Shown: positions 1,601 to 49,543, numbered from the stretch's first letter. The stretch is 64,000 nt of DNA from Minisyncoccota bacterium (GCA_041389045.1 JAWKSQ010000001.1:139063-203062); one strand, 5' to 3'. The notes: generated by a model not told the origin, from the letters alone. Translations and numbers: made by a program.

Positions 1601-1604
1601 ACTG

Positions 1605-2114: not shown

Positions 2115-2143
2115 ATGCTTAATAACTTGAATTATATTAATTT

Positions 2144-2893: not shown

Positions 2894-2898
2894 AACTT

Positions 2899-3447: not shown

Positions 3448-3474
3448 TTATTATTTATCCTAAATTATTAAAAT

Positions 3475-4008: not shown

Positions 4009-4016
4009 GTCTGTAT

Positions 4017-4640: not shown

Positions 4641-4649
4641 ATAAATAAT

Positions 4650-5309
4650 ATGGAAGAGACACAAAGAAATGAAGAACCTATTAAACGTAACGAGGAGGAA
4701 TTTCATGTAACCGCAACAAAAGTCCAGCAAAAACCACTCCTGATCTATGGCGCAGTTGCCGTAGTTATAGTTTTGGTAGTAGGAGCAATTTTGTACACAC
4801 AAGGTTTTGTCACTGCCGCTAAAGTAAATGGTCAGTCAATCAGTCGACTGAGTGTAGTCAGTGAGTTGGAAGAACAGGCTGGTGCGACAGTACTAGATTC
4901 TATGATTTCAGATATCCTGATCGAACAAGCTGCCACTGAGGCCGGGGTGACAGTGACTGACGCTGATGTGGCAACAGAGATTGTAGCTATTGAGTCACAA
5001 ATTACTACCCAAGGAGGAACGTTGGACGAGGTCTTAGTACAGCAAGGATTAGACCGGGAAAGTCTTACAAAACAAATTCGGATGCAAAAACTACTGGAAG
5101 CTCTTTTATCATCGGACATCGTGGTAACTGGTGAAGAAATTGATGCTTTTCTAGCAGAGAATGGCCCAGTTCCTGAAGGTCAGGAAGAAGCCGCTCGGGC
5201 ACAAGTAGCCGAACAGCTTAGAAGTCAAAAGTTTAGCACTGCTGCGCAAAGCTACGTAACTGGTTTACGTACTAAGGCAAACATTCAGTACTTAGTGAAC
5301 TACAAATAA
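4650..5309 (+). CDS. SurA N-terminal-domain-like membrane-anchored chaperone, no PPIase domain visible
   Basis: TM anchor followed by AAKVNGQSISRLSVVSELEEQAG and repeated helical segments, as in SurA_N/PpiD-like proteins. Confidence 0.5.
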   Translation: MEETQRNEEPIKRNEEEFHVTATKVQQKPLLIYGAVAVVIVLVVGAILYTQGFVTAAKVNGQSISRLSVVSELEEQAGATVLDSMISDILIEQAATEAGVTVTDADVATEIVAIESQITTQGGTLDEVLVQQGLDRESLTKQIRMQKLLEALLSSDIVVTGEEIDAFLAENGPVPEGQEEAARAQVAEQLRSQKFSTAAQSYVTGLRTKANIQYLVNYK

Positions 5310-5313
5310 TCGT

Positions 5314-6564: not shown

Positions 6565-6571
6565 CATTACT

Positions 6572-8518: not shown

Positions 8519-8520
8519 TT

Positions 8521-8811
8521 ATGAAAAAGGAAACATTCAAGGAAATAATTGAAACAGACAATAGCATCCTCCTGCTCGATATTAGAGAGCCGGAAGAACT
8601 GCTAATTGAGGAAACAATTCCTGGTGCTAAGAACGTACCAATGGGGAAAGTTTTTACCGAAGCCATTAAAGGAAATTTACCAAAAGATGTACAGATAATT
8701 GTTTTCTGTCGTACAGGTGGTCGTGCTGGTGTAGTGGAAAGAGAGTTACGTGAAAGAGGGTATCTCATTGATGGATTGGAAGGCGGTCTAGAGGCTCTAA
8801 GGGAAACATAA
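8521..8811 (+). CDS. single-domain rhodanese-like sulfurtransferase
   Basis: Active-site loop FCRTGGRAG. About 96 aa. Confidence 0.8.
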   Translation: MKKETFKEIIETDNSILLLDIREPEELLIEETIPGAKNVPMGKVFTEAIKGNLPKDVQIIVFCRTGGRAGVVERELRERGYLIDGLEGGLEALRET

Positions 8812-8817
8812 TTATCT

Positions 8818-9291
8818 ATGCTAGAAATTGTCTCCATTTTTTTAGCTACCAAGTTGCACGTCGTTATTGTTTTGACTGCACTAGTTTTTGTTGCGCTCGC
8901 TTCAGATTATCAACGACTGCGAATTCTTGTATTAGCTACAATCTCATTACCTCTTACTTTTATCGTTAGCAGAAGTGCCTCTTTGTTAGTTGAGAACCCT
9001 CGACCATTTCTTGAGCACGATTTTATGCCATTGGTGGCTCACGCGGCTGACAATGGATTCCCTTCAGATCACGCTTTGTTGGTATTTGCTATCGCTAGTA
9101 TTGTGTTCACGTTTAACAAATCAGCTGGAATAGTTTTGTTTATTATGGCGGCTTTGGTTGGATTTGGAAGGGTGCTGGTTGGGGTACATCACGTTGTTGA
9201 TGTGCTAGGTAGTTTCGTGATTGCAGCATCCATTGTTAGTTTATGCTATCTAACTTTACGCAGTTCTCTTACTGAAATCTATAAAGATTAA
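8818..9291 (+). CDS. PAP2-family phosphatase (undecaprenyl-diphosphatase-like)
   Basis: PSDH and GRVLVGVHHVVD motifs in a polytopic membrane protein. Confidence 0.75.
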   Translation: MLEIVSIFLATKLHVVIVLTALVFVALASDYQRLRILVLATISLPLTFIVSRSASLLVENPRPFLEHDFMPLVAHAADNGFPSDHALLVFAIASIVFTFNKSAGIVLFIMAALVGFGRVLVGVHHVVDVLGSFVIAASIVSLCYLTLRSSLTEIYKD

Positions 9292-9310
9292 GTTTTTTGT
9301 GGGCGTTTTT

Positions 9311-10672
9311 CTATCCGAAGAATATTCCTCCTAATAACCAGAGATTTAGTCCAGCAATGATGATACAGATAATCCAAGCGATTATGCTAAGGATAGTTGA
9401 GTTTGCAAATTCACCCATAATCTTTTTACTGCCTGTAAACACAATGAGGGGAAAGATTGCAAAGGATAGTTGGAGACTAAGAACCACCTGACTTAATATC
9501 AAGAGATCTGTCGCTGCATTCGCACCGTAAAGACCAATAAAGACTACGGCAGGAATAATTGCTAGCAAACGAGTGATGATTCTTCGCATCCAAGGCTTGA
9601 TTCGTAGATTGATGAATCCTTCCATGATGATCTGACCAGCCAGTGTACCGGTAATAGTGGCGTTTTGTCCCGCTGCCAAAAGTGCAATGGCAAACAAAGT
9701 ACTAGCTGCACTAATACCAACTAGTGGCGAAAGGAGTTTGTAAGCATCCTCAATCGCTGCGACTTCATTGAGGCCGTTAGTAAAGAATACTGCAGCCGCT
9801 AGAATTAGAATTGAAGCATTAACAAACAAGGCGATAGTAAGGGCGATAGTTGAATCAAAAGTAGCAAACTTAACTGCTTCCTTTTTACCTTCTTTTGTTT
9901 CAGCATACATTCGAGTCTGAACGATAGATGAGTGCAAGTAGAGATTATGAGGCATTACTGTAGCTCCAATAATACCAATTGCTAAGTAAAGCATTTCAGG
10001 ATTGAATACTAATTGAGCAGTAGGAAGGAACCCAACTAGCAACGGAGCGATAGCGGGAGCTGAAGCAAAAATTTGAAAGGCAAATATACCAGCAATTGTC
10101 GCCATCAAAGTAACAATAAGGGCTTCTAAGTAACGGAAACCCTTATTCTGCAAGAGAAGAATAACTAAAACGTCAACTGCCGTAATGATCACACCGACTA
10201 TAATTGGAATATTAAACAGAAGGTAAAGTGCAATGGCTGAACCAATTACCTCGGCTAAGTCAGTGGCGATAATCATCACTTCAGCCATGAGCCAAAGTAT
10301 GATAGCGACCGGCTTAGGGAATTTATCTTTACACATTTGAGCTAGGTCTCTACCTGTCACAATACCCAGCTTTAGGGCTAGGTGCTGTAGAATCATGGCA
10401 AAAATACTAGACATTAGTACTACGGTAAGTAAGGCGTAGCCAAACTTTGAACCGCCAGCAATACTGGTGGCCCAGTTTCCTGGGTCCATATAACCGACAG
10501 CTACCAAAAAGCCTGGACCAGAATATAAGAGTAATTTTTTAGAAAAGGATAGGTTAGGTGGAACAGGAATTGAGCGGTGTACTTCAGGTAAACTCGGTGT
10601 CTTTTCATCTTCCCCCGCTTCTCTTGAGGCTCCTTTCCAGCCTAAAGCTTTAAATAAATTTGTGTGCGTCAT
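9311..10672 (-). CDS. mntH: Nramp-family divalent metal (Mn/Fe) transporter
   Basis: DPGNWATSIAGGSKFGY and MPHNLYLHS, 11-12 TM segments, 453 aa. Confidence 0.9.
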   Translation of the reverse strand: MTHTNLFKALGWKGASREAGEDEKTPSLPEVHRSIPVPPNLSFSKKLLLYSGPGFLVAVGYMDPGNWATSIAGGSKFGYALLTVVLMSSIFAMILQHLALKLGIVTGRDLAQMCKDKFPKPVAIILWLMAEVMIIATDLAEVIGSAIALYLLFNIPIIVGVIITAVDVLVILLLQNKGFRYLEALIVTLMATIAGIFAFQIFASAPAIAPLLVGFLPTAQLVFNPEMLYLAIGIIGATVMPHNLYLHSSIVQTRMYAETKEGKKEAVKFATFDSTIALTIALFVNASILILAAAVFFTNGLNEVAAIEDAYKLLSPLVGISAASTLFAIALLAAGQNATITGTLAGQIIMEGFINLRIKPWMRRIITRLLAIIPAVVFIGLYGANAATDLLILSQVVLSLQLSFAIFPLIVFTGSKKIMGEFANSTILSIIAWIICIIIAGLNLWLLGGIFFG

Positions 10673-10725
10673 AGGTATAATAAATCGCTTTTTGCGATAG
10701 GTTTTTAATAATGTTTTGTATAGTT

Positions 10726-11160
10726 TTAATCTTTAAACTTTGGAATAGGAGATCCATGAGGGTCATTCACTGGATTGTGTAAAAATTTTGCCAGTCTTTT
10801 TATTACGTCATCACTGAATGCATGTTCTAACTTCTCAGCTTCTTCATGGATTTTGTCTTTTGGAATTTTTAAAGTTTCGTGCAGGAAAACTTCTATAATC
10901 CTGTGTTTATAAGTTAGTTTCTGAGCCGCGCCCAAACCTTTTGCTGTCAAAGTAATTTGACCGTAGATTTCAGCAACTACAAAACCATCTCTAACTAATT
11001 CTTTCACTCGCTCTGAAACAGTTGATTTACTGAGCTTGAGACGTTCAGCAATATGTGTCACCCCAGCTTCACCCGTTGCTTTTTGGATAATATATATCGC
11101 TCTAATATAGTCTTCTTTGGTCGATGATATCGACGGAGGAGTACCCGAAGGTGTTCGCAT
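10726..11160 (-). CDS. mntR: DtxR/MntR-family metal-dependent repressor
   Basis: Winged-HTH N-terminus (EDYIRAIY..LKLSKSTVSERVKELV) and a dimerisation domain with HRIIEVFL..HEEAEKLEH. Lies directly upstream of mntH on the same strand. Confidence 0.8.
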   Translation of the reverse strand: MRTPSGTPPSISSTKEDYIRAIYIIQKATGEAGVTHIAERLKLSKSTVSERVKELVRDGFVVAEIYGQITLTAKGLGAAQKLTYKHRIIEVFLHETLKIPKDKIHEEAEKLEHAFSDDVIKRLAKFLHNPVNDPHGSPIPKFKD

Positions 11161-11246
11161 GTACGAACTATACTCTTATTCGCTTTAAAAGCAAGATAAA
11201 ATATCAACACAGGCAATAATTTATTATATGTAAATTTGAAACGCGA

Positions 11247-11275
11247 TTGACTAAGAGACCCCCTGGGGGTATCAT
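11247..11275 (+). promoter_or_regulatory. sigma70-like promoter with a G/C-tract palindromic operator in the spacer
   Basis: TTGACT (11247-11252), 17-nt spacer, TATCAT (11270-11275). The palindrome ACCCCCTGGGGGT (11258-11270) fills the spacer, 6 nt upstream of the csoR-family gene start. Confidence 0.6.
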
Positions 11276-11281
11276 TGAAAT

Positions 11282-11554
11282 ATGAAACAGGACATTAAGA
11301 AAAAAGTCATCAAAAGACTTAAAATCATTGAAGGTCAGGTTCGTGGGTTACAAAAAATGGTTGAGAAAGAGAAGTATTGTGTTGATGTTATTACCCAGTC
11401 CTCTGCTGTTCGTCATTCTCTAGGATCAGTTGAAGATTTAATGATGGAAAATCATCTTTCAACTCACGTGATTGAACAGATGAGGAAGGGGCAACATAAA
11501 AAAGCTACTCAAGAAATTTTATCGGTATATAAATTAGCTAAGTTTAATAAATAG
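11282..11554 (+). CDS. CsoR/RcnR-family metal-sensing repressor
   Basis: RLKIIEGQVRGLQKMV, then Cys (YCVDV) and NHLSTH. Ligand fingerprint is x-C-H-H. Confidence 0.8.
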   Translation: MKQDIKKKVIKRLKIIEGQVRGLQKMVEKEKYCVDVITQSSAVRHSLGSVEDLMMENHLSTHVIEQMRKGQHKKATQEILSVYKLAKFNK

Positions 11555-11556
11555 CT

Positions 11557-13554
11557 ATGAAACACTCACATGATTGTCATAGTCACGGAAGTCCTGGAAT
11601 GGGTCACGGCTCAGCTGGTACTTTTTTAAAGCGGTTTTGGATCGTTACCTTTCTGCTCATTCCGTTAGTCTTTGCTAACGAAATGATAATGGAGGCTATC
11701 GGTTTGGACTCATTCATTCTGAGCAAGTGGATCGGTTTTGGTATAGCTACAATTATTTTTGGTTTCTCGCTTATCTTTTTCCAGCATGCGTGGCATGAAA
11801 TAAAAGCCAGGGCGTATGGCATGATGACGTTGGTTTCAATCGCGGTTGCCTCAGGATATCTCTTTTCGGTAGCTGCTACATTTATTCCGAGTCTCGAAGC
11901 AGATTTCTACTTGGAAATTTCAACTTTGATTTGGGTGCTTCTCTTTGGGCATTACCTTGAAGCAAAGTCTGGAGCAGCAGCTGGTGATGCCCTTGCTGAA
12001 GTTGCTAAGCTTTTACCAAAACAGGCACACAAACTGGTTGACGGACAAGAAGTTGACGTAAACATTGCAGAGTTGGTTAAAGGCGATATTGTTTTAGTGA
12101 AACCAGGTGAGAAGATTCCAGCTGATGGTTTGATACAAGAAGGTTCTGCCAATATAGACGAAGCCCTGATTAGCGGTGAATCAAAGCCAGTTGAAAAAAC
12201 CGTCGGTGCGGAAGTAGTCGCTGGTGCTATCTGTCTTGATGGCTCACTCACCATTACACTTACCCGAGTTGGTGAACACTCTACCATTGGACAAATTCAA
12301 ACCTTAATCGCCCAGGCCCAACAGACCAAACCAAACTCGCAACGAATTGCCGACAAAGCAGCTGCCGTACTTACATTTGTGGCTGGTATTACTGCGCTGT
12401 TAACTATTTTGGTTTGGACATTCTTGCTAGGCGAGACGTTTGTGTTTGCGGTTACTCTCGCTATTACGGTATTGGTAATTGCTTGTCCGCACGCACTGGG
12501 TTTGGCTATTCCAACTGTGACCACCATCACGACATCACTAGCAGTGAAAAATGGTTTCTTCATCAAGAACCTAGCGAAGATTGAGGTCATTCGGAAAGCT
12601 GACTACGTGGTTTTTGATAAGACTGGCACGCTTACAACTGGTCAGTTTGGGGTGACTGATATTGTTGCGACCAGCAGTCTTTCTAAGGAAGACATTTTAC
12701 ACATTGCCGCTTCGCTTGAACAACATTCTTCACATATTATCGGTGAGTCTATTGTGAAGCATGCTAAAGATTCTAAAGTCGCACTCTCTAATATTTCAGC
12801 CTTTAAGAATGTAGCTGGGAAAGGTATCACTGCCGAACTTGATGGAAAAAGGTATGTGGTTGGTAATAAGGCCCTCATGTCTGAGATGAACATCAATCTT
12901 GATGGTGCTGAAGCCGAATATAAAACTCTGTCTAAGAAAGGCAAAACGACCATCTTGATAGCTGACGGAACTAAGGTGCTTGGTCTAGTCGCTCTGTCTG
13001 ATGCCATCAAACCAGAGTCATTTGAAGCAGTTAACCGGTTGCATGTAATGGGTGTGAAAGTAGCGATGTTAACGGGAGACAATATCCAAGTAGCTAAAAG
13101 TGTAGCCGAAGAACTTGGTATTGATACCTACTTTGCCGAAGTGTTGCCAGAAGATAAATACGAACACATTAAGGAATTGCAAAATGATGGCTCAATTGTA
13201 TTGATGGTTGGCGACGGTGTAAATGATGCACCTGCACTGACCCAAGCAAATGCGGGAATTGCCATTGGTGCAGGAACTGATGTGGCAGTTGAAGCGGGTG
13301 ATGTGGTACTGACTCGCAACAATCCCGAAGACATTGTTCGACTGATTACATTAGCCAAGAAAGTGTATAGCAAAATGATCCAAAATCTTGTGTGGGCGCT
13401 GGGGTATAACGTTGTCGCTATTCCAGCTGCTGCTGGCGTGTTTGCGTACTGGGGCTTCTTCTTACGGCCTGAAATCGGGGCGTTTGTGATGAGTTTATCA
13501 ACGGTGATTGTAGTAGCCAATGCCATGCTCCTCAAACGAATAGATTTAGGTTAA
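11557..13554 (+). CDS. copB: P1B-3 type copper ATPase (CopB-like, CPH motif)
   Basis: His-rich N-terminus (HSHDCHSHGSPGMGHG), TM6 ACPHALGLAIP, DKTGTLT, GDGVNDAPAL, YN in TM7 and MSLST in TM8. Confidence 0.85.
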   Translation: MKHSHDCHSHGSPGMGHGSAGTFLKRFWIVTFLLIPLVFANEMIMEAIGLDSFILSKWIGFGIATIIFGFSLIFFQHAWHEIKARAYGMMTLVSIAVASGYLFSVAATFIPSLEADFYLEISTLIWVLLFGHYLEAKSGAAAGDALAEVAKLLPKQAHKLVDGQEVDVNIAELVKGDIVLVKPGEKIPADGLIQEGSANIDEALISGESKPVEKTVGAEVVAGAICLDGSLTITLTRVGEHSTIGQIQTLIAQAQQTKPNSQRIADKAAAVLTFVAGITALLTILVWTFLLGETFVFAVTLAITVLVIACPHALGLAIPTVTTITTSLAVKNGFFIKNLAKIEVIRKADYVVFDKTGTLTTGQFGVTDIVATSSLSKEDILHIAASLEQHSSHIIGESIVKHAKDSKVALSNISAFKNVAGKGITAELDGKRYVVGNKALMSEMNINLDGAEAEYKTLSKKGKTTILIADGTKVLGLVALSDAIKPESFEAVNRLHVMGVKVAMLTGDNIQVAKSVAEELGIDTYFAEVLPEDKYEHIKELQNDGSIVLMVGDGVNDAPALTQANAGIAIGAGTDVAVEAGDVVLTRNNPEDIVRLITLAKKVYSKMIQNLVWALGYNVVAIPAAAGVFAYWGFFLRPEIGAFVMSLSTVIVVANAMLLKRIDLG

Positions 13555-13571
13555 AATAACAGACATAACGT

Positions 13572-13988
13572 ATGTTTACATTTGTACAACAAACAGCTAA
13601 GAAAATAGTCTGTATTAGCGTACTCACAGTTTTTATCGGCGCCATGTTCGTTAGCTTGTTCCATATGTCTGTAGGCATGGATATGGCTGGTGGCATGTCA
13701 GATTGTCTGTTTATGGAACGAGGTGAAGTGATTTGCCCGATGAATATCGCTGACCATATTGGGGCGTGGAAAGATGCTTTTGTTTCAGTCGTTCCAACCA
13801 TCGTCACGCTTGTATTAGCTGCGGGTGCGATTGCTTTGGTTGTTTCAACAGCACCTTTTTTATTGGGTGCAAAAAGAAAACTGATACCCATCCAACTCAA
13901 TGTGTTTCGTACTCGGACGTACTCCTTTTCATATCGTCCACTACAGGAACTATTTTCTAATGGTATTCTTCACCCAAAACTTTTTTAG
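13572..13988 (+). CDS. hypothetical membrane protein with a Cys/Met motif, paralog of 1605..2057
   Basis: Same conserved blocks as ORF 1605-2057 (SLFHMS, C..ME.G..IC.M, H..AW, QELFSNGILHPKLF). Immediately downstream of copB. Confidence 0.6.
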   Translation: MFTFVQQTAKKIVCISVLTVFIGAMFVSLFHMSVGMDMAGGMSDCLFMERGEVICPMNIADHIGAWKDAFVSVVPTIVTLVLAAGAIALVVSTAPFLLGAKRKLIPIQLNVFRTRTYSFSYRPLQELFSNGILHPKLF

Positions 13989-14044
13989 CTACCGAATATT
14001 GCGATTTAAATCGCTCATTTAGTAGCTTAGAAAAGTAAATAAAC

Positions 14045-14707
14045 ATGCAAAAAACATACTTTCTTGGTGCAATTCTTTTTGCACCATCGATTATTCTCGC
14101 TCACGAGGAAGAACTACATATCACCACGGCGTGGTACCAAGAACCGATGACTGTTGTCGCCATACTTTTAGCTGCTCTGGCTATAAGTGTGCTCAGCTAT
14201 GGAGTCATCACCAAGAGAAAAAACTTCATCACGATACCAGTAATAGCGTTGGTAGCGGTTGCTGTCACAGGTTTAGTTTCCTTTGGTCAAAACAACCTCA
14301 CCTACGAGCCAGACTTAGCGGTCGCAAACTTTGGTGAAGGTCAGTCAGTCACCTTATACAAGAGTCCGAATTGCGGCTGTTGTAGTGGTCACACAGCGGC
14401 ACTCGAAGCAGCTGGCTTTGATGTCACGATTGAAGAAACAAATGAGCTTAACACTATTAAACAATCAAACAATATTCCTCTGGGTGGAGAGAGCTGTCAC
14501 ACGTCTATCATTGGTGATTACGTAGTAGAAGGTCATGTGCCACTAGAAGCCATTGAGAAACTACTGACTGAACAACCTGACATTGCTGGCATTGGATTAC
14601 CGGGAATGCCAATTGGTACCCCAGGTATGCCAGGCAAAAAAACAGCTCCGTATGAAGTTTATCAATTATCAGCTGATGGAGAGATGTCACCTTATCTAAC
14701 TATCTAA
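14045..14707 (+). CDS. DUF411 (CopG-like) metal-binding protein with an N-terminal membrane region
   Basis: YKSPNCGCCSGH, CHTSIIGDYVVEGHVP and GLPGMPIGTPGMPG are the DUF411 signature blocks. Confidence 0.8.
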   Translation: MQKTYFLGAILFAPSIILAHEEELHITTAWYQEPMTVVAILLAALAISVLSYGVITKRKNFITIPVIALVAVAVTGLVSFGQNNLTYEPDLAVANFGEGQSVTLYKSPNCGCCSGHTAALEAAGFDVTIEETNELNTIKQSNNIPLGGESCHTSIIGDYVVEGHVPLEAIEKLLTEQPDIAGIGLPGMPIGTPGMPGKKTAPYEVYQLSADGEMSPYLTI

Positions 14708-14709
14708 AT

Positions 14710-16383
14710 ATGAAATACATATTAAGCATAGGTGCGTTCTTGCTCCTTATTGGTGGGGTGTTTTGGTATACCAGTACTCCAAACATGATGAGGATGAACA
14801 TGGACGGCATGATGATGGGACAAAATATTCCTGAAGAAGACAATTTAGCAATCTTGCACGATGCGAATGTACCAGAAGTACAGCCAACTCAAGTGGTTGA
14901 ACTCAATGATGGCGATACATTTAATCTTACTGCTTCAATTGTGAAGCAAGAAGTCGGTAATCGAACTGTAAAGCGGTTGGCGTATAACGGTCAGATTCCT
15001 GGCCCAGTACTGAAGGTGCAAAAGGGTGCAAAAGTGACCGTCAACTTTATCAACAACATAGACATGCAGACATCACTGCACTCACACGGCTTACGCGGAG
15101 ATTGGCAGATGGACGGTGCAGTACCGATTACTCCAGCCATTGCAGTCGGAGAAAGTTTCTCGTATGAACTTGAGTTCCCTGATACGGGCGTATTTTGGTA
15201 CCACCCACACGTACGTGAAGACTACCAGCAAGAAGTGGGTCTCTACGGAAACATGATTGTAGAAGAAGATGGGTACTGGAATGAGGCTGATCAAGAAGAA
15301 TATCTAATAGTTGATGACATTCTTGAAGACGGAGACTTTACCGAAGGAGTAGTGACTAACACTCTCATGGGCCGCTTTGGTGACACATTGCTCATTAATG
15401 ACAAAGAAGACTATAACTTTACCGTTAAACAAGGAGAAATAACACGGGCGTATATCACTAACGTTGCAAACACTCGAACCTTCCAGTTAGAGTTTGAAGG
15501 TGCACTCATGAAGCTTGTCGGTGGAGATGTGGGGCGAATTGAAAAAGAAGAGATAATCGAGCATCAGACTATAGGAACAGCTGAACGATATGTAATTGAG
15601 CTGTATTACGATACGCCAGGAACGTACGCAATTGATCATCGTGGAGAAACTATTGGTACAGTCACCGTAGAAGCTTCTGGTACAAATAAGAAAGCAGAAT
15701 TCATGACCTTGCGTTCTAACGTTGCTGACTATACTGATATTCGATCTGATGTTGCATCGTTATTATCTAAAACACCTGACAAAAATCTTCGTCTCGATAT
15801 AGAAATGAAAGGCATGATGAGCGGAATGATGAATGATATGAACGGTGGTGGATCAGGTATGGGTATGATGGGCGGAAATGCTGATGACGATATGATGCGT
15901 GAGCACTGCAAGATGATGCCGGAAATGGCTGGCTGTGAACCGTATCTAGAAGGATCTGAAGAAGAGGAAGAAGAACACGGCGAGGATGGTATTGAATGGG
16001 AAGACGATATGGCCATGATGAACAATATGAGTTCTGACGAAAATATCGAATGGGTTATTGAAGACACTGACACAGGAGCAAAGAACGACGAGATTGATTG
16101 GTCATTCAAGACTGGAGACTTAGTGAAGGTGCGTGTCTACAATGACGAAAAAGGTATGCATCCTATGCAGCATCCTCTTCACTTCCACGGTCAACGGTTT
16201 GTTGTCTTGGCAGAAGACGGTGAACTCAATGAAAACATGCAGTGGAAAGACACGGTGTTGATTCCAAAGGGTCAGACTGTAGATATTCTTGTTGATATGA
16301 GTAACCCAGGCAACTGGATGGCTCACTGTCACATCGCTGAACACCTGCACTCAGGCATGATGTTCAACTTTGAGGTGAAGTAA
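14710..16383 (+). CDS. multicopper oxidase with a Met-rich and acidic insertion
   Basis: Copper-site motifs HSHGL, WYHPH, HPLHFHG and HCHIAEHLHSGMM. The insert is MKGMMSGMMNDM..MGMMGG..EEEEEEHGEDG. Confidence 0.85.
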   Translation: MKYILSIGAFLLLIGGVFWYTSTPNMMRMNMDGMMMGQNIPEEDNLAILHDANVPEVQPTQVVELNDGDTFNLTASIVKQEVGNRTVKRLAYNGQIPGPVLKVQKGAKVTVNFINNIDMQTSLHSHGLRGDWQMDGAVPITPAIAVGESFSYELEFPDTGVFWYHPHVREDYQQEVGLYGNMIVEEDGYWNEADQEEYLIVDDILEDGDFTEGVVTNTLMGRFGDTLLINDKEDYNFTVKQGEITRAYITNVANTRTFQLEFEGALMKLVGGDVGRIEKEEIIEHQTIGTAERYVIELYYDTPGTYAIDHRGETIGTVTVEASGTNKKAEFMTLRSNVADYTDIRSDVASLLSKTPDKNLRLDIEMKGMMSGMMNDMNGGGSGMGMMGGNADDDMMREHCKMMPEMAGCEPYLEGSEEEEEEHGEDGIEWEDDMAMMNNMSSDENIEWVIEDTDTGAKNDEIDWSFKTGDLVKVRVYNDEKGMHPMQHPLHFHGQRFVVLAEDGELNENMQWKDTVLIPKGQTVDILVDMSNPGNWMAHCHIAEHLHSGMMFNFEVK

Positions 16384-16400
16384 TAGCGGTATGCACGCAA

Positions 16401-16436
16401 ACTAACAAGACCACTCAATTGAGTGGTCTTGTTAGT
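16401..16436 (+). terminator. 16-bp perfect hairpin terminator
   Basis: ACTAACAAGACCACTC-AATT-GAGTGGTCTTGTTAGT followed by TT. Confidence 0.7.
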
Positions 16437-16493
16437 TTGCTAGACTTGCTGAGATTGATGGGGTATTAACCCCTCTCGATAGGTCTCGCTACG

Positions 16494-16569
16494 TGGTGCG
16501 CCCACTAGGGATCGAACCTAGGACCTTCTCCTTAAAAGGGAGCTGCTCTACCGGCTGAGCTATAGGCGC
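16494..16569 (-). tRNA. tRNA-Lys (anticodon TTT), CCA encoded
   Basis: Manual cloverleaf: acceptor GCGCCTA/TGGGCGC, D arm GCTCAGCCGGTAGAGC, anticodon loop CTTTTAA, T arm CTAGG-TTCGATC-CCTAG, then ACCA. Confidence 0.85.
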
Positions 16570-26654: not shown

Positions 26655-26726
26655 GCTCTCGTAGTTTAATGGATAAAATGCTGGTTTGCGGTACCAGCGC
26701 TCCAGGTTCGATTCCTGGCGAGAGCA
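26655..26726 (+). tRNA. tRNA-Arg (anticodon GCG)
   Basis: Acceptor GCTCTCG/CGAGAGC, anticodon stem CTGGT/ACCAG with loop TTGCGGT, T arm CCAGG-TTCGATT-CCTGG, discriminator A. No encoded CCA. Confidence 0.75.
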
Positions 26727-26876
26727 CAAATAAACACTCCCAATAATATGGGGTGTTTATTTTTGTAGCTCGAAGAGCCGGAGTCTTCGTCCAGGAATCG
26801 AAAACTGTATATCGCACGGAGCAGAAGCAGTGACGGCTGCCGTCCCATGAGGAAGATTACCCTGGCGAGAGCACCA
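26727..26876. repeat. tRNA-linked repeat unit ending in a duplicated tRNA-Arg(GCG) 3' fragment
   Basis: Contains hairpin 26729-26765, short hairpin CGAAGA..TCTTCG 26771-26789, and CCAGGAATCGAA 26791-26802, which is the reverse complement of the tRNA T arm 26707-26718. CCTGGCGAGAGCA at 26861-26873 duplicates 26714-26726 and is followed by CCA. Confidence 0.7.
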
Positions 26877-34291: not shown

Positions 34292-34701
34292 AAGAAATCT
34301 ATCACGGGACAACTCAAAAAGACTTACAGGTAATCAAGCCTTTTAAAAGATATACGCCTGGTGGCAAAGACATCGCTGATTCTATTCCTCCACGTATTTA
34401 TGCTACCTACAATCCAGCTTACGCTGTTGCGCACAGCTTCCCTTGGTCTTCTGATGATGGAGTAGATATTTCAATTAGAGACGGCATAGTAACTATCATT
34501 GTCCCAAGTGATAAAGAGTCTGTACTTAAACAAGAGGTCTGTATCTACACGCTTCCTGATGACACTTTTGTTTTTACTGATGAGGAAGAAACTGGTCTAA
34601 CTTATCACACTACCGAAGAAATTAAACCTATTACGTGTCAAAGCTTTAAAAGTGTTGCAGAAGCAATGGATAAAATGGGAGGAAAAATTATCTTTATATA
34701 A
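34288..34701 (+). CDS. hypothetical protein
   Basis: 137-aa ORF overlapping the grpB stop by 4 nt. No family recognised. Confidence 0.45.
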   Translation: MKEIYHGTTQKDLQVIKPFKRYTPGGKDIADSIPPRIYATYNPAYAVAHSFPWSSDDGVDISIRDGIVTIIVPSDKESVLKQEVCIYTLPDDTFVFTDEEETGLTYHTTEEIKPITCQSFKSVAEAMDKMGGKIIFI

Positions 34702-34743
34702 AAGTAAACAAATACGAAACTGAAGCGATTCATAACCTTCCTT

Positions 34744-34811
34744 TGACGCAGGTTACTAAGTGTTCTCACCAATTTCATTGGTTGCGAGCACTAAGTACCT
34801 GCTGTCCCAGC
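34744..34811 (+). repeat. 68-bp element, itself hairpin-forming; left copy of a perfect inverted repeat (partner 38955..39022)
   Basis: The reverse complement of 38955-39022 is identical over all 68 nt (checked base by base). Internal arms GCAGGTTACTAAGTG / CACTAAGTACCTGC and ACCAAT / ATTGGT. Confidence 0.9.
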
Positions 34812-34999
34812 GCATTTGTTTTCTTTCTGAGGAGAAAGAAAACAGCCTTTACGCTTCACAAAACTACAAAACCAGCCGCAGGGCTGGTTTTGTTTAATGT
34901 TTTGTGGGGTCAAGTTTCTAATTCACTACGTTCATAAGAACTTCCTCCCCGACCTCGTCTATTTTGGCATTAAGTAATAGCCAAAATATGACTCCGGTT

Positions 35000-35101
35000 G
35001 GCACACAGGCACGAAACTGAAGCAATTCAGTTTCTAAATCAAAAGCACGATTCTCTCAAAGAATCGTGCTTTTGATTTACCTGTGTGCCCCCGCGAGGAA
35101 T
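35000..35101. repeat. tRNA-linked three-helix module ending in a displaced tRNA-Arg(TCT) 3' fragment
   Basis: Closing helix GGCACACAGG 35000-35009 / CCTGTGTGCC 35080-35089. Hairpin GAAACTGAA-GCAA-TTCAGTTTC 35013-35034. Long hairpin 35036-35078. GTGCCCCCGCGAGGAAT at 35085-35101 duplicates 35306-35322. Confidence 0.7.
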
Positions 35102-35306
35102 GATCCCGCAGTTTCTAATTCTCTATGCCCGCCTGACGGCAGGCTAGCTCATAAGAACTGCTGGACGCAGCTCCCTCGTTTTCTTTCTAGGAAGGAAAGA
35201 AAACATCACTCCGCTGGTTCGATTCCTACGAAAAGTGCCTATGCACTTTTCTCTTGGGGTACGAACAAAAACGGCACACATAATAGTGTGCTCGTTTTTG
35301 TACTCG
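35102..35306. repeat. tRNA-linked repeat unit adjacent to the intact tRNA-Arg(TCT)
   Basis: GGTTCGATTCCT 35216-35227 is the reverse complement of the tRNA T arm region 35317-35328. Hairpin GAAAAGTGC-CTAT-GCACTTTTC lies in 35228-35252 and a long terminator-like hairpin at 35259-35303. Hairpin GTTTTCTTTCT..GAAAGAAAAC lies near 35178-35206. Confidence 0.65.
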
Positions 35307-35378
35307 TGCCCCCGCGAGGAATCGAACCTCGAATAACGGCTTAGAAGTCCGCAGTTATATCCATTTAACTACAAGGGC
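35307..35378 (-). tRNA. tRNA-Arg (anticodon TCT)
   Basis: Acceptor GCCCTTG/CGGGGGC (two G-U pairs), anticodon loop CTTCTAA, T arm CGAGG-TTCGATT-CCTCG, discriminator A. Confidence 0.8.
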
Positions 35379-35455
35379 AATCAACTTGCGAAGCATAGCA
35401 GAAAAAGATGGTGCTGTGAATATTAGATGAAAAGCAAATGGCATCGCGCTTGCAG

Positions 35456-35726
35456 GGTGAAAGGCTCGATCACCTCGCTGAGTATTTTTGTTCAAGATAA
35501 AGTTTTTTCGTGGTCACGAATCACTAAGTATATTTCTGCACTTCGTGCGAAATCCACTAAGTGTTCTCGACCCAGGCTCAACCCTTTTCTTCCCTGTGAA
35601 GGGGAAGAAAAGATGTCTCCGCCTCGCACTAAGGCACGAAAGCAAAGCAGTTTGCTTTCTAAAAGAAAAGCCCAGTCAATTTGTGACTGGGCTTTTCTTT
35701 TACCTTAGTGCGCGATGAGAGGCTCG
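35456..35726. repeat. tRNA-linked repeat unit ending in a displaced tRNA-Val 3' fragment
   Basis: 35456-35492 is homologous to 35715-35751. ACTAAGT-armed hairpins. Hairpin CCTTTTCTTCCC..GGGGAAGAAAAG. Closing helix CGCACTAAGG 35625-35634 / CCTTAGTGCG 35703-35712 encloses hairpins 35636-35660 and 35661-35701. TAGTGCGCGATGAGAGGCTCG at 35706-35726 duplicates 35894-35914. Confidence 0.7.
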
Positions 35727-35896
35727 GTCACCTCGCTAAGTATTTTTGTTCGCTATGCTCCAAAAAGTACTAAGCTCCTCGACCCCGGCTATTTTAATTC
35801 TCCAAGTCTTCGAATTAAAATCACGCCCTTCGAGCCTCACACATCTATGCCTGAGACACAAAATGTCCCAGCAAAAGCTGGGACATTTTGGTCTAG
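35727..35896. repeat. tRNA-linked repeat unit adjacent to the intact tRNA-Val
   Basis: CTAAGT-armed hairpin 35737-35781. Hairpin ATTTTAATTC..GAATTAAAAT. TTCGAGCCTC 35829-35838 is the reverse complement of the tRNA T arm 35907-35916. Terminator-like hairpin 35860-35889. Confidence 0.65.
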
Positions 35897-35969
35897 TGCG
35901 CGATGAGAGGCTCGAACTCCCGACCTTCGCAGTGTAAATGCGCTGCTCTACCAACTGAGCTAATCGCGC
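35897..35969 (-). tRNA. tRNA-Val (anticodon TAC)
   Basis: Acceptor GCGCGAT/ATCGCGC, D arm GCTCAGTTGGTAGAGC, anticodon loop TTTACAC, T arm GGGAG-TTCGAGC-CTCTC, discriminator A. Confidence 0.85.
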
Positions 35970-36055
35970 AGACTTTCATATCTGCGTCGCCATATACTAC
36001 CGGTTTTTCAAATATTATCAATATCTCTCCTGGCAGGTATACTGTGTCATATATT

Positions 36056-36328
36056 ATGACAGAAATTCAGTGTGTAATAACTGGTAAAGTGCAAAGAGTT
36101 GGTTATCGAGATTTTGTTCAAGATGCTGCCGCTGAACTTGGGCTGTTTGGCTACGTGCAAAATCAAGCGGACGGCTCGGTCACTCTAGTGGCTCAAGGTG
36201 AACCAGAATCACTTAGACTCTTTGTTGAATATTTGCACGAAGGTTCACCCTTGTCGAAAGTAGAGGGAGTGGCTGTTGAGTGGCGAACCTCGACGAAACT
36301 ATATGATGATTTTTCTAGTTTAATTTAG
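36056..36328 (+). CDS. acyP: acylphosphatase
   Basis: ITGKVQRVGYRDFV..GYVQNQADGSVTLVAQGE. The start is set at the internal ATG 36056, because the upstream part of the ORF-track frame runs over the tRNA. Confidence 0.85.
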   Translation: MTEIQCVITGKVQRVGYRDFVQDAAAELGLFGYVQNQADGSVTLVAQGEPESLRLFVEYLHEGSPLSKVEGVAVEWRTSTKLYDDFSSLI

Positions 36329-36329
36329 G

Positions 36330-37016
36330 ATGAAAACAAACTCCGGTTCGCTCCAGTGTGTGGGATTTATTATGGATGGTAATCGACGCTTTGCTAAGGC
36401 GAAGGGTGAAGAAACCTTAGCAGGGCATTTGGCTGGGAAGGAGAAATTTAAGGAGGTAATAGATTGGGTGATTGAGGCTAGTATCCCCCATGCGGTTTTC
36501 TATGCTTTTTCAACTGAAAATTGGAAACGTAGCGCAGATGAAATTGAATATCTATTGGGGTTATTAATGAATGAATCAGACCCTGATTCAAATTATATTA
36601 ATAAAAATGTCAGATTAAGGACAATCGGAGATATTGATCGCTTTCCAAAGTTGATGCAGGCTAGGCTTAGAAAGTCAGAGCTTGAAACAGCTGGCAAGAG
36701 ATATGTCACAACAGTTTGGTTGGCTTTGTCATACGGTGGTCGAGCTGAAATTGTTAAAGCGGTAAATCTGGCTATTAAAAATGGAGAACCAGTAACGGAA
36801 AAATCTTTTCACCAGCTACTAGAGACTAGAGAAATGCCTGACCCCGATCTAATCATTAGGACCGGTGGGGAACAAAGGTTATCGAACTTTCTCCCTTGGC
36901 AAAGTATCTATAGTGAACTTTTCTTTGTTGATACCTACTGGCCGGCTTTTACAAAAGACGAATTTCAGCGTATTCTCAGCGAATATGCAAAAAGAGAACG
37001 GAGACTTGGTCGCTAA
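36330..37016 (+). CDS. uppS: isoprenyl transferase (undecaprenyl diphosphate synthase)
   Basis: GFIMDGNRRFAK, FSTENWKR and RTGGEQRLSNFLPWQSIYSELFF. Confidence 0.9.
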   Translation: MKTNSGSLQCVGFIMDGNRRFAKAKGEETLAGHLAGKEKFKEVIDWVIEASIPHAVFYAFSTENWKRSADEIEYLLGLLMNESDPDSNYINKNVRLRTIGDIDRFPKLMQARLRKSELETAGKRYVTTVWLALSYGGRAEIVKAVNLAIKNGEPVTEKSFHQLLETREMPDPDLIIRTGGEQRLSNFLPWQSIYSELFFVDTYWPAFTKDEFQRILSEYAKRERRLGR

Positions 37017-37767
37017 TGATGTGGCTTTGATTCCAGAAATAATCTACGAAGATGATGATGTTTTGGTAATTAACAAACCTTATGGTTTGCTTGTGCATGA
37101 GGATTGGACAGCTAGTAACTCGCAGACAGTAGTCGAGTGGTTTCTTGACCGAGTGCCAAGTGCTCACGGGGTAGGTGAAGTAACGACTAAGCCAGACGGG
37201 ACACCACTTGAACGTTCGGGGGTAGTGCATCGCTTAGACCGAGAAACTTCTGGAGTGATGATTTTGGCTAAGACAGCTAAGGCGCACGCTCATTTGAAAA
37301 AGCAGTTTCATGATCGATTGGTTAAAAAAGAGTATCGTGCTTTCGTCTACGGACGACTACATGATCAGTGGGGAACTATCAACCGACCGATTGGGCGCAA
37401 TCCAAAAGACTTCAAGAAGCGTTCCGCTGAAAGGGGAGCGAAGGGTACCCTTCGTGACGCCCTTACTTACTTTGAAAGAATTGGTGTCGGTGAGTATGAG
37501 GGCGAACCATTTTCTTACGTTAAGCTCTTACCTAAAACTGGTCGAACCCATCAACTGCGGGTGCACTTAAGGGCGATAGACAGAGCCATCGTGTGTGACG
37601 CACTTTATGCCGATAAGAAAATGCCAATCTCTAATAATTTAGGTTTAGACCGACTGGCTCTCCATGCGCATGTTCTGGAAATAGAAATGTTAAATGGTGA
37701 AAAAGAGCGCTTCATTGCAACGATTCCAAGGGATTTTGAGCTAGCGGCTGAACGTATTGCAGAGTAG
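37006..37767 (+). CDS. RluA-family pseudouridine synthase (no S4 domain)
   Basis: VLVINKPYGLLVH, HRLDRETSGVMILAK and GRTHQLRVH. Start uncertain (TTG 37006 or GTG 37021). The long upstream extension in the ORF track overlaps uppS and I rejected it. Confidence 0.75.
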   Translation: MVANDVALIPEIIYEDDDVLVINKPYGLLVHEDWTASNSQTVVEWFLDRVPSAHGVGEVTTKPDGTPLERSGVVHRLDRETSGVMILAKTAKAHAHLKKQFHDRLVKKEYRAFVYGRLHDQWGTINRPIGRNPKDFKKRSAERGAKGTLRDALTYFERIGVGEYEGEPFSYVKLLPKTGRTHQLRVHLRAIDRAIVCDALYADKKMPISNNLGLDRLALHAHVLEIEMLNGEKERFIATIPRDFELAAERIAE

Positions 37768-37823
37768 GAAGGGGTGTGGTAGATTATGGCACGTTTAATC
37801 GTCCTATTGATTAGGTATTTATT

Positions 37824-38498
37824 ATGAAAACAGCAGTTACAGGAGTTACGGTTTCGCCCGTAAATATGAGTGAAAGAGTCGACCTAGGAATTAGGGCTGG
37901 CGACACTGTTCGTGTGCACCAGAAAATTCAAGATAAAGGTAAGACACGTATCCAGATTTTTGAAGGAATCGTGTTGGCCCGTAAGCATGGTACAGAACCA
38001 GGCGCTACTTTTACCGTTCGTAAGGTAGCTAGTGGAGTGGGTGTAGAAAAAATCTTCCCGCTTTACTCACCACTAATCGACAAGCTAGAAATTGTTAAGC
38101 GCGCTAAGGTTCGTCGCAGTAAGCTTTACTACATCCGTGAAAAAGTGGCTCGTGAGGTTAAGCGTCAAATGCGACGTATGACAATGATGGGGCTTTCTAC
38201 AGAGTCTGAGACCGAGTCAGCACTACGCGCAGCAGCTGAAGCCAAGGCTTTAGAAGAAGCAGAGCTAAAGGAAAAGGCTGAAGCTGAAGCTCGCGAAGCA
38301 GAATTCGCCGCTAAGGAAGCAGAAGAAAAGGCTAAGAAAGAAGAGGCGGATGCAGCGGCCAAGGCAGAAGCAGAGGCAGTTGCTACTCCAGTAGAAGAAG
38401 CTCCTGCTCCAGTTGAGACTCCAGCTGAAGAAGTAAAGGTAGAAGAAGTGAAAACAGAAGAAGCTACAGCTGTTGAAGAAAGCGAGAAGAAGGAATAA
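37824..38498 (+). CDS. rplS: 50S ribosomal protein L19 with an Ala/Glu/Lys-rich C-terminal extension
   Basis: [42 protein letters not shown] core, then about 110 aa of low-complexity AEAKEE repeats. Confidence 0.9.
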
Positions 38499-38512
38499 GT
38501 TTCAAAATACCT

Positions 38513-38548
38513 AAAACAAAAACCGGACCCTCGTCCGGTTTTTGTTTT
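38513..38548 (+). terminator. rho-independent terminator after rplS
   Basis: AAAACAAAAACCGGACCC-TCG-TCCGGTTTTTGTTTT. Confidence 0.8.
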
Positions 38549-38607
38549 GCTTGAAGTAGATGGCCTTTTCAGGCATAATGGCGCCACGCCCAAAAGGCGT
38601 GTCACCT

Positions 38608-38692
38608 GCCCAGGTGGTGAAATTGGTATACACGTATCCTTGAGGTGGATATGCCGAAAGGTGTGGAGGTTCAAGTCCTCTCCTGGGCACCA
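38608..38692 (+). tRNA. tRNA-Leu (anticodon GAG), CCA encoded
   Basis: Acceptor GCCCAGG/CCTGGGC, anticodon stem TATCC/GGATA with loop TTGAGGT, long variable arm, T arm GGAGG-TTCAAGT-CCTCT, then ACCA. Confidence 0.85.
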
Positions 38693-38826
38693 GATTAAAG
38701 CCGGCGACTAGCCGGTTTTAATGTGGGCGAGAGGACTTGAAAAGCTTTTGAGGCAGAATTGACTGAAAGGAAATTGTGTCCAAAAGGTCTACTGAACATG
38801 TAATGTTCAAGTCCTCTCCTGGGCAC
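38693..38826. repeat. tRNA-linked repeat unit ending in a duplicated tRNA-Leu 3' fragment
   Basis: Terminator hairpin 38697-38719. GAGAGGACTTGAA 38729-38741 is the reverse complement of the tRNA T arm 38670-38682. GTTCAAGTCCTCTCCTGGGCAC at 38805-38826 duplicates 38669-38690 (22 nt). Confidence 0.7.
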
Positions 38827-39022
38827 AGAGTCGCAAAAACAAGAACACCACCTTTAGGTGGTGTTCTTGTTTTTAGGAAGCAAACTGCTTTGCTTCCGGC
38901 GACTCTGTGAAGCGGAGACATGTTCTTGCTCGTTTCTAGAGCAAGAACAGTTGAGCTGGGACAGCAGGTACTTAGTGCTCGCAACCAATGAAATTGGTGA
39001 GAACACTTAGTAACCTGCGTCA
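38824..39022 (-). repeat. tRNA-linked repeat unit in inverted orientation, containing the right copy of the 68-bp inverted repeat
   Basis: Closing helix CACAGAGTCGC 38824-38834 / GCGACTCTGTG 38899-38909 encloses hairpins 38835-38874 and 38876-38897. Hairpin GTTCTTGCTC..GAGCAAGAAC lies near 38921-38949. The 68-bp element is at 38955-39022. Confidence 0.7.
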
Positions 39023-39038
39023 AAAAATCTTACGTTTT

Positions 39039-39140
39039 GCCGGTTTTAATGTGGGCGAGAGGACTTGAAAAGGTTGCCAGCTATTTTGAAAAAATAGCGA
39101 CAACCTGTACTGAACTCCTAGAGTTCAAGCCCTCTTCCAA
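39039..39140. repeat. second, degenerate copy of the tRNA-Leu-linked unit
   Basis: 34 nt are identical to 38711-38744 (GCCGGTTTTAATGTGGGCGAGAGGACTTGAAAAG at 39039-39072). It ends in GTTCAAGCCCTCTTCC, a degenerate tRNA-Leu 3' fragment. Confidence 0.6.
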
Positions 39141-39190
39141 CTTATGAATATATTGACAAAATACTATAAAAATGTTATTATATAAAAATA

Positions 39191-39507
39191 ATGAAAAATC
39201 TTGGCTACAAAGTATTTTTGCTCGGAGCAGTATTCCTAATCCCTTCGTAGGGCAGGCCAATTTTGATACTACAGCGCCAGGTCTACTCGACGAAAAGCCA
39301 GTTTCTCTTTTTGAGGATATTGCCGGATGTTTCTATGGTAGTACTGAGGGTGGTTTTAACTTCACTCAACAGCCGGTGACTAATGAGTTTGACTTGAGGA
39401 TACAGAAGTTTGTGATGGGGGACTTAGTTTTTTATATTTCTGACTTAGGTGTAATCACTGCCGATAGTGACCTAATGGCTATATCAATCTATCTTTCGTA
39501 CTCGTAG
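39191..39507 (+). CDS. hypothetical small secreted protein, frame interrupted once
   Basis: Signal-like MKNLGYKVFLLGAVFLIP in one frame joins FVGQANFDTTAPG.. (ORF 39172-39507) if the C3 run near 39243 is read as C4. Confidence 0.4.
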
Positions 39508-49209: not shown

Positions 49210-49470
49210 CGTAAAAATATTATAACAAGTTTTAATTTCTCTATAGAGTAGCTATAAAAAACTAATGTAGCACTGCTTCAAAATGATCGGTACCAGGGTA
49301 ATCTTTCGCTACACGAACGGTACAGTTTTCACACCTTACTTCGCCAAAGGCTCGTTTCGGCATGTTCAAACTCTTCGATTCTCGACGCTAGTGACGTAGG
49401 TCACTAGCTGTAGCCTAGTCATAAAAAAGAAACCTCTCCCGAAAAGGGGAGAAGCTTCGTTTTCCTGATG

Positions 49471-49543
49471 GGCGATCACAGGGAATCGAACCCTGATTAC
49501 CGGTACCACAAACCGGAGTATTAGCCGTTATACGATGATCGCC
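49471..49543 (-). tRNA. tRNA-His (anticodon GTG) with encoded G-1
   Basis: GGCGATCA../..TGATCGCC acceptor including the G-1:C73 pair, anticodon stem CCGGT/ACCGG with loop TTGTGGT, T arm CAGGG-TTCGATT-CCCTG. Confidence 0.8.

Follow-up and report, generated by a model that had tools for sequence, protein, structure and literature searches.

In the IS200/IS605 family, cleavage and target sites are recognised by pairing with an internal guide, so that the guide matches its neighbour (PMC3201880, PMC5934647); the left and right guides of bridge RNAs (LTG and RTG) are complementary to opposite strands, one on each side of a core (PMC11208160); and casposons integrate in a polar, site-specific manner at the 3' end of transfer RNA (tRNA) genes, with a long target duplication and in tandem arrays (PMC5137440). 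The stretch analysed here (the window; that is, all 64,000 nucleotides (nt) of GCA_041389045.1 JAWKSQ010000001.1:139063-203062, from a Minisyncoccota bacterium) contains seven tRNA genes (ARAGORN and Rfam). An original prediction, made from the sequence alone, had described, behind tRNA genes and displaced tRNA fragments, a three-helix module with a closing segment that is the reverse complement of the neighbouring tRNA's T arm or 3' terminus. This observation is real and its centre stands, and the interpretation placed on it is, as a whole, partly supported. Rather than an independent element, the module is the tRNA-proximal head of a gene-less cassette of ~110-220 bp that begins with the terminator of the tRNA; this insertion unit has direct repeats or shared junction nucleotides, is present or absent among relatives, and occurs in stacks. 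We suggest, with a probability of about one half, that these cassettes represent a new and widespread family of short, gene-less, non-autonomous elements that are specific for tRNA 3' ends and whose junction is specified by an internal complement.

Inverted matches and cassette anatomy

All seven inverted pairs listed in the original prediction were confirmed as exact reverse complements, the distance between the arms being 46-89 nt, both those at tRNA genes (Arg-GCG, 26707-26718/26791-26802; Arg-TCT, 35216-35227/35317-35328; Val, 35829-35838/35907-35916; Leu, 38670-38682/38729-38741) and those at displaced tRNA fragments (35000-35009/35080-35089, 35625-35634/35703-35712 and 38824-38834/38899-38909). 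The small hairpins framed by ACGAAA..TTTCT were also recovered (35011-35035, 35228-35252, 35636-35660 and 38875-38898). The module does not follow every tRNA, as had been claimed, given that tRNA-Lys and tRNA-Ser of the window are without one, and an eighth, decayed copy behind tRNA-His (49470-49542) had been overlooked. In agreement with the statement that no described element has this organisation, only the seven tRNAs reached the gathering score in an Rfam search of the window, an E-value scan of 34400-39400 returned only weak chance matches, and literature searches found no description of such an element.

The cassettes have two types of junction. Those of the T-loop type (scaffolds T2, E and T3) are flanked by direct repeats of 13-25 nt that correspond to the T-loop-to-3'-end part of the tRNA (segment S, about C56 to C74), and they run in the order S, bidirectional terminator, IRb, small hairpin of 7-9 bp, IRa, then a CGGAG..ATG motif or the long hairpin of T3, further hairpins and the second copy of S. 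IRb is the reverse complement of the acceptor 3' strand and is often decayed, IRa is the reverse complement of the T-loop plus the 3' strand of the T-stem, and both are complementary to the tRNA-sense strand of one contiguous segment of 22-24 nt. The single complementary segment of the original prediction is present, but in the T-loop type it usually has a partner on the other side of the small hairpin; likewise, the displaced tRNA fragments are real, but are the direct repeats that close each T-loop-type unit. In the 3'-end type (T1) there is no duplication, and both junctions lie after CAC (or after CAG where the tRNA ends in CAG). Here the order is ..CAC, a linker of 5-9 nt, terminator, small hairpin, a complement that covers the linker and CAC with or without two more tRNA nucleotides, RGNCGGAGNNATG, hairpin H2 and a long hairpin H3 that ends ..GTGACCAC or ..TTGACCCCAC; beyond this right end, the sequence is unrelated between copies.

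In both types, the long hairpin is an ordinary strong bidirectional intrinsic terminator (a GC-rich hairpin with a T-run, called on both strands at 35273-35292, 34866-34893 and elsewhere, and covering helix 2 only), and the small hairpin and the closing helix lie beyond the T-run. Single-stranded motifs such as CGGAGACATG are conserved, the two ends of a unit are not inverted repeats of each other, and the units (110-220 bp) contain no open reading frame (ORF); the ATG in CGGAGACATG was considered as a possible start and rejected by comparing copies, between which the short frames are conserved in neither frame nor length. Where units are stacked, S alternates in orientation (S-forward, terminator, S-inverted, scaffold, S-forward) and distal copies are decayed.

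The pattern is lineage-wide in Paceibacteria (Patescibacteria). A scan with ribosomal protein L19 yielded 80 syntenic loci from metagenome-assembled genomes of Paceibacteria and Kaiserbacteria-like bacteria (L-numbered below), which together with the window provided about 216 usable tRNAs. When the last 35 nt of each tRNA plus 12 nt of trailer were compared with the next 25-250 nt downstream, 75 of the ~216 tRNAs were followed by an inverted copy, exact over 12 nt or more, of their own 3' part and two controls gave 0, and chance is therefore excluded; 44 tRNAs have 12 nt or more of their 3' part directly repeated (control, 0). A profile of the CGGAG-H2-H3 scaffold (nhmmer) had 68 matches, of which 41 lie no more than 150 nt downstream of a tRNA on the same strand and 16 are stacked within 400 nt of one, the rest being ~720 nt downstream (1), behind inserted islands (3) or at locus edges (7). 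The commonest small hairpin, as an exact 25-nt sequence, occurs on at least 120 metagenome contigs and adjoins at least 30 tRNA species among the matches listed, and the segment 3' of it complements the local tRNA, either in the T-loop region (-22..-9) or at the 3' end plus linker (-6..+7). A phage origin was considered and rejected, as two scaffold motifs had 0 matches in viral contigs.

An alignment of 16 T1 heads (alignment A1), tested against the three-helix structure with 500 shuffles, bears out the prediction of an architecture that persists although its sequence is replaced, with strong covariation in all three helices. Paired cells make up 90.6% (64.4% in shuffles), changes occur on both sides in 32 of 38 pairs, and the covariation score of 0.696 (0.199 in shuffles) was reached by 0 of the 500; in slid registers, pairing is only 38-52%. 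The small hairpin, also said to covary, is free of GU pairs and shows compensatory change at all 9 of its pairs, and the helices meet in a tight three-way junction whose nucleotides are conserved. Among 20 distinct T1 units, the linker pairs at 6.8 of 8 positions, compared with 3.3 when arms are re-dealt, and in 12 of them the two tRNA nucleotides before CAC are matched too. The homologous units of L022 (at tRNA-Val) and the window (at tRNA-Arg) exemplify this: the linker pairing ACAGG/CCTGT is common to both, and the complements end GTGCG in L022 and GTGCC in the window, fitting CGCAC and GGCAC, respectively.

Several observations bear on insertion. The cassettes always lie downstream of a tRNA and in its orientation, the unit type at a given tRNA varies among close relatives, and cassettes are present or absent. 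T1 homologues stand directly behind tRNA-Arg in L032 and tRNA-Val in L004, L008 and L022, and in the window the same homologues are set back from the tRNA by precisely one T-loop unit and one repeat. Active amplification is indicated by L091:4158-4726 (-), where five T1 units of 136 nt, all identical and without terminator, stand in tandem downstream of a displaced 3' fragment of tRNA-Asp. The right end of T1 mirrors its target, being ..GTGACCAC or ..CCCCAC where tRNAs end ..CAC and ..GTGACCAG (CCAG) where tRNA-Asp ends ..GCAG (L091), and this shared core of 2-3 nt is a signature of site-specific joining. For the T-loop type, 37 of 77 IRa cores are perfect and 40 imperfect; 12 of these 40 match the variant that the same tRNA has in another genome (6% expected at random) with both direct repeats local, which argues against local templating of the complement and favours a target-derived duplication. 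IRa thus moves together with its unit. Near-identical strains for an empty-site comparison were sought with three window proteins, which had no exact match on record.

Comparison with described systems and rival explanations

The nearest analogy for T1 is the logic of IS200/IS605. As with derivatives of that family (that is, PATEs and the REP/REPIN elements moved by Y1 HUH enzymes), the cassettes are short, gene-less and hairpin-rich, T1 is inserted 3' of a short motif without duplication (from the junction of ..CAC with the linker to that after ..CCAC), subterminal hairpins are found at both ends (the three-way junction on the left, H3 on the right), and one strand would be active. The differences are these: the cassette helix is 8-12 bp of Watson-Crick pairs, or up to 24 bp in two parts, unlike the 4 nt and non-canonical contacts of IS608; the junction-spanning complement of 8-12 bp lies 3' of the hairpins, whereas the IS200/IS605 guide lies 5' of the hairpin foot; the cassettes target tRNA ends, and the T-loop type duplicates 18-22 nt; and there is neither a Y1 transposase among the 50 window ORFs nor a bias to one replication strand. 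With integrative elements that target tRNA genes, the cassettes have in common flanking direct repeats from T-loop to 3' end, an intact tRNA and tandem insertion, and genuine islands of large serine recombinases occupy the same sites in this lineage; unlike such elements, the cassettes have no integrase or cargo, measure only 110-220 bp, contain an inverted copy of the att core and have two repeats that both look target-derived. Similar to integron attC and CTX-phage attP sites, structure rather than sequence is conserved, and an imperfect hairpin with a bulged element recreates the duplex of the partner site, but alignment A1 has no R''/L''-L'/R' boxes or GTTRRRY core, there is no link to IntI or Xer, and the sites are attached to tRNA genes. 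Casposons resemble the cassettes in their polar, tRNA-end-specific insertion with a long duplication, but that duplication is 15 bp and beside rather than within the tRNA, and the cassettes have no terminal inverted repeats and no cas1 or polB.

Given the strength of the covariation, a structured RNA has to be weighed, be it a selected fold of the tRNA 3' trailer (reached by terminator read-through) or a small RNA, acting in tRNA 3' processing, quality control or regulation, with the closing helix sequestering the tRNA 3' end. The tight three-way junction with its conserved nucleotides and the conserved single-stranded motifs fit such an RNA, as does an RNA-like wobble: in 7 of 16 copies the closing helix has T.G at pair 13:84, and transition mismatches between the inverted segments and the tRNA are more often of G.T type (13) than of A.C type (4), which together indicate the tRNA-sense strand. 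Interior GU pairs also favour this strand (66 compared with 23 on the other), but their excess is limited to the terminator and head region, the scaffold having 16 and 10 (not significant), and although the tRNA strand folds more stably in 31 of 31 units, minimum free energy was discarded as strand evidence because the difference is lost against dinucleotide shuffles (z-scores -3.3 and -3.2). Moreover, a strong terminator with its U-run sits between the two arms of the closing helix, and no sigma-70-like promoter was found inside the units on either strand by a search that recovers tRNA promoters, such that the closing helix would rarely exist in RNA. Fast turnover of unit types, decayed stacks and direct repeats are not expected of a host RNA-processing signal, and the complement sometimes fits a foreign tRNA variant. 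The original prediction had left the fold to RNA or single-stranded DNA; the T.G wobble places it on the tRNA-sense strand, where we consider a DNA-level role more likely and a selected free RNA fold the less likely half, and a structured RNA as the explanation of the cassettes is on balance quite unlikely.

Passive scars also seem unlikely. The repeats would then be attL/attR remnants of integrase-borne islands that had lost their interior, and the inverted copies would be functionless products of template switching by which the palindrome of the terminator grew into the tRNA end. Islands demonstrably use tRNA ends (tRNA-Val in L001, L021, L081, L082 and L084; tRNA-Ser in L067), IRb directly abuts the terminator stem to form a continuous long palindrome, and some tRNAs carry only an extended terminator stem without scaffold (for example, in L002 and L012). 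Yet conserved scaffolds stand beside at least 30 tRNA species, so that every deletion would have had to spare the same 110-220 bp, and the sequenced islands do not have these ends; IRa lies beyond the conserved small hairpin, where a single template switch cannot produce it; foreign-variant IRa contradicts local templating; and the five identical tandem copies point to amplification rather than a scar. An improbable alternative is that the cassettes are transposase-less derivatives of IS110/IS1111 elements, the head encoding a bridge RNA or seekRNA and the complements serving as its guides. Short re-writable guides that match the target flank a hairpin in those RNAs, which the IRb-hairpin-IRa layout resembles; T1 (and T1 only) has the same 2-nt core at both junctions without duplication (AC in the window, AG in L091); IS110 promoters form at the circle junction, with which the lack of an internal promoter would agree; and a family of IS110-family transposases occurs in these bacteria. 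Against this, the ends of the sole IS110-family element found are not those of the cassettes, and its insertion site is GGATT-CG-AA within IRa, the T-loop type has its duplication of 18-22 nt, there is no DEDD recombinase in cis (and no DEDD gene in the window), and IRb and IRa, whose target is contiguous, both pair with one strand of it, unlike bridge-RNA guides, which pair with opposite strands; the cassettes are not members of the bridge-RNA group.

We therefore return to a family of non-autonomous cassettes inserted at tRNA 3' ends, for which the following steps can be envisioned. Each cassette would supply its tRNA with a new bidirectional terminator, followed by the small conserved hairpin, a junction complement of 10-24 nt, the single-stranded CGGAG..ATG motif and one or two hairpins. 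On the tRNA-sense strand, the complement would pair with the last nucleotides of the target and the first nucleotides of the cassette itself, and this pairing, with two hairpins, would create the three-way junction. We infer that such a base-paired junction in single-stranded DNA could be the substrate of a putative trans-acting recombinase or transposase, and that the target or cleavage site might be set by pairing with an internal guide, by analogy with IS200/IS605 ends, folded attC sites and guide-RNA systems. New cassettes would insert beside the tRNA and push older ones outward. A stronger version, which we regard as possible but doubtful, is that these are self-guided miniature mobile elements in which the 10-24 nt complement within the three-way junction (of the DNA strand or an RNA copy) picks the tRNA end, the re-written segment retargets the element to any of 30+ tRNA species and a putative enzyme moves it in trans. 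If true, this would be a natural programmable, base-pair-addressed insertion system that differs from IS110 bridge RNAs, from the guides of IS200/IS605 and from CRISPR-associated transposons.

A number of points weigh against the proposed family. No recombinase or transposase was found that carries cassette ends, and none lies near the window units; no HUH domain is present among the 50 window ORFs scanned (64 kb of the genome); and the serine recombinase islands and the IS110-family element are only co-tenants of the same sites. No circular or excised form was observed. Conservative recombination should leave one repeat element-borne, but both look local (~8 informative cases), and we know of no target duplication of ~18-22 bp for HUH or IS110 enzymes. 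The window units lie on both replication strands, which is at odds with a strictly lagging-strand mechanism in single-stranded DNA (3-4 units only), and the strand asymmetry in folding energy is gone after composition control.

Units of the window

One series of units follows tRNA-Arg(TCT) (35306..35378, -), the T-loop-to-3'-end segment of which (35306-35322) is the first copy of a direct repeat. Behind it lies the T-loop-type unit T2 (35102..35305, -), composed of a terminator (35265-35301), a decayed IRb (35252-35262), the small hairpin (35230-35251), IRa (35216-35229, of which 35216-35227 had been recognised), the CGGAG motif (35204-35215), hairpin H2 (35179-35203) and further scaffold to 35102; homologues stand behind tRNA-Val in L011, L016 and L030 and behind tRNA-Arg in L005. 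The second repeat copy (35085..35101, -; 17 nt, equal to the first) is followed by the 3'-end-type unit A (34904..35084, -), with linker ACAGG (35080-35084), terminator (35035-35079), small hairpin (35013-35034), closing-helix complement (35000-35009), CGGAG motif (34987-34999), H2 (34962-34986) and a right end ..TTGACCCCAC (34904-34924). Unit A is 85% identical to the unit directly behind tRNA-Arg in L032. After its ..CCCCAC end is inserted an older 3'-end-type unit, Z (34742..34903, -), with terminator (34866-34893), complement GTTTTGTG (34857-34864) and long hairpin H3 (34745-34811).

Behind tRNA-Val(TAC) (35896..35969, -; first repeat copy at 35894-35914) lies the T-loop-type unit E (35727..35893, -), with terminator (35859-35890), IRa (35829-35838) and a hairpin H3 that ends GGTGACC (35726-35786), and then the second repeat copy (35706..35726, -; 21 nt, equal to the first). 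The 3'-end-type unit C (35510..35705, -) comes next, with linker TAAGG, terminator (35660-35702), small hairpin (35638-35659), complement (35625-35634), CGGAG motif (35612-35624), H2 (35585-35611) and H3 with the end ..GTGACCAC (35510-35573); beyond it is a decayed third copy of the tRNA-Val repeat (35451-35467).

On the other strand, tRNA-Leu(GAG) (38608..38692, +; first repeat copy at 38669-38690) is followed by the T-loop-type unit G with scaffold T3 (38693..38804, +), consisting of a terminator (38695-38721), IRa (38729-38741) and a long hairpin and mini-hairpin to 38804, by the second repeat copy (38805..38826, +; 22 nt, equal to the first) and by the 3'-end-type unit D (38827..39030, +), with linker (38827-38834), terminator (38835-38874), small hairpin (38876-38897), complement (38899-38909), CGGAG motif (38910-38922), H2 (38923-38947) and H3 (38946-39024). 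An older, partial T3 unit (39039..39138, +) contains a second IRa (39057-39069) and a decayed repeat (39127-39138), and along this whole stack S is forward at 38669, inverted at 38729, forward at 38805, inverted at 39057 and forward, in decayed form, at 39127. Single units follow two other tRNAs. One, of the T-loop type, stands behind tRNA-Arg(GCG) at 26655-26727 (26655..26874 with its tRNA, +), with terminator (26728-26762), small hairpin (26770-26789), IRa (26791-26802) and direct repeats at 26714-26727 and 26861-26874; the other is the decayed T3 unit behind tRNA-His (49285..49542 with its tRNA, -), with terminator (49429-49458), an IRa remnant (49374-49383) and a decayed repeat (49285-49303), which is homologous to an intact unit behind tRNA-His in L084. 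The direct repeats of the units of tRNA-Arg(GCG), tRNA-Arg(TCT), tRNA-Val and tRNA-Leu measure 14, 17, 21 and 22 nt, respectively.

A 79-nt inverted repeat, 96% identical (34742-34820/38946-39024), is one and the same H3 hairpin, shared by two units that differ elsewhere, and the units are therefore mosaics. This repeat brackets 4.1 kb with tRNA-Arg, tRNA-Val, uppS, rluD, rplS and tRNA-Leu, a segment that could be inverted through it. A perfect 24-nt palindrome (39521-39544/39546-39569) downstream of an ORF (39172-39507) is probably a terminator.

Other elements at the same sites and significance

A family of large serine recombinases of 543-546 amino acids converges on tRNA-Val and overlaps its 3' end (genes at L001:6421-8052, L021:6242-7879 and, in each of L081, L082 and L084, 10001-11640). 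The islands are 5-8 kb with defence-like cargo (Mrr_cat, SduA_C/Shedu, and a DNA methylase plus HATPase), and their conserved end motif, AAAAAGTTCAAGTxGGGTxATAxTxxxGCAC, mimics the T-loop-to-3'-end segment of the tRNA but is 5 nt longer, as expected of attP compared with attB half-sites of serine integrases. This recombinase looked like the mobiliser of the modules in L021 and L084, where a module stands at the far end of the island; it was ruled out, given that the islands of L081 and L082 end ..GTTCAAGT..GCAC and continue into ordinary host sequence without a module, and that in L021 and L084 the island is wedged between the tRNA and a pre-existing, older module.

The IS110/IS1111-family element (L091:5086-6168, -; L206-L212; L223:1278-2315) encodes a transposase of 345-346 amino acids with DEDD_Tnp_IS110 and Transposase_20 domains and has subterminal inverted repeats CCATAGAACCC/GGGTTCTATAG and the core CG. 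It starts with CCACCATAGAACC after CG and ends ..TCTATAGA before CG, its insertion being specific for GGATT-CG-AA inside IRa (that is, the T-loop complement); its 3' non-coding region contains GGAATCGA- and ATAGACGAA-like stretches, which could be seekRNA guides, and the family is large and mostly on contigs of 1.2-2 kb, which suggests a multicopy element. The position of the DEDD transposase of L091, just behind a head-like region, had raised the element as a parent of the modules, and this was ruled out: among copies with the same transposase, the insertion sequence begins inside IRa and the head differs, and because the boundary lies inside IRa the element uses modules as targets and is not their parent. 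IS110-family elements are likewise described as targeting REP repeats (PMC12288879; PMC11208160).

Other inserts and probable islands lie at tRNA genes of the window and of the related loci. In the window, a serine recombinase of 348 amino acids with Resolvase and Recombinase domains (99-1145, +) marks the far end of a ~16 kb block (1-16493) downstream of tRNA-Lys (16494-16569), with genes for metal handling (DsbA-like, DUF3105, DUF305, two P-type ATPases, Nramp, multicopper oxidase and DUF411); this block is probably an integrated island with its far boundary outside the window. Directly behind tRNA-Lys is a conserved 46-nt hairpin motif, GAGACCTATCGAGAGGGGTTAATACCCCATCAATCTCAGCAAGTCT (16442-16487, -), near-identical versions of which occur behind tRNA-Arg(TCT) in L016, truncated in L030, and after a T1 unit in L032, and which may be the tRNA-proximal end of another family of islands. 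At tRNA-Ser(GCT), an insert of 937 bp with one gene (L063:3024-3960) and one of 6.4 kb with a different serine recombinase (L067:620-7190) share the left end (T/A)AGTCGAG..CTCG.

If the proposed family is real, a large share of the tRNA genes of a major uncultured bacterial lineage would be trailed by tiny mobile cassettes that replace the terminator of the tRNA and record successive insertions, the newest nearest to the tRNA. The cassettes would also be secondary landing pads, the IS110-family element targeting the T-loop complement and the defence islands of the serine recombinases using the same tRNA ends. The repeats would account for breaks in assemblies and for spurious 'tRNA fragments' in candidate-phyla-radiation genomes. 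Finally, the junction-spanning complement offers a testable hypothesis that targets are chosen by base pairing, for which the naturally retargeted copies provide a data set of specificity.

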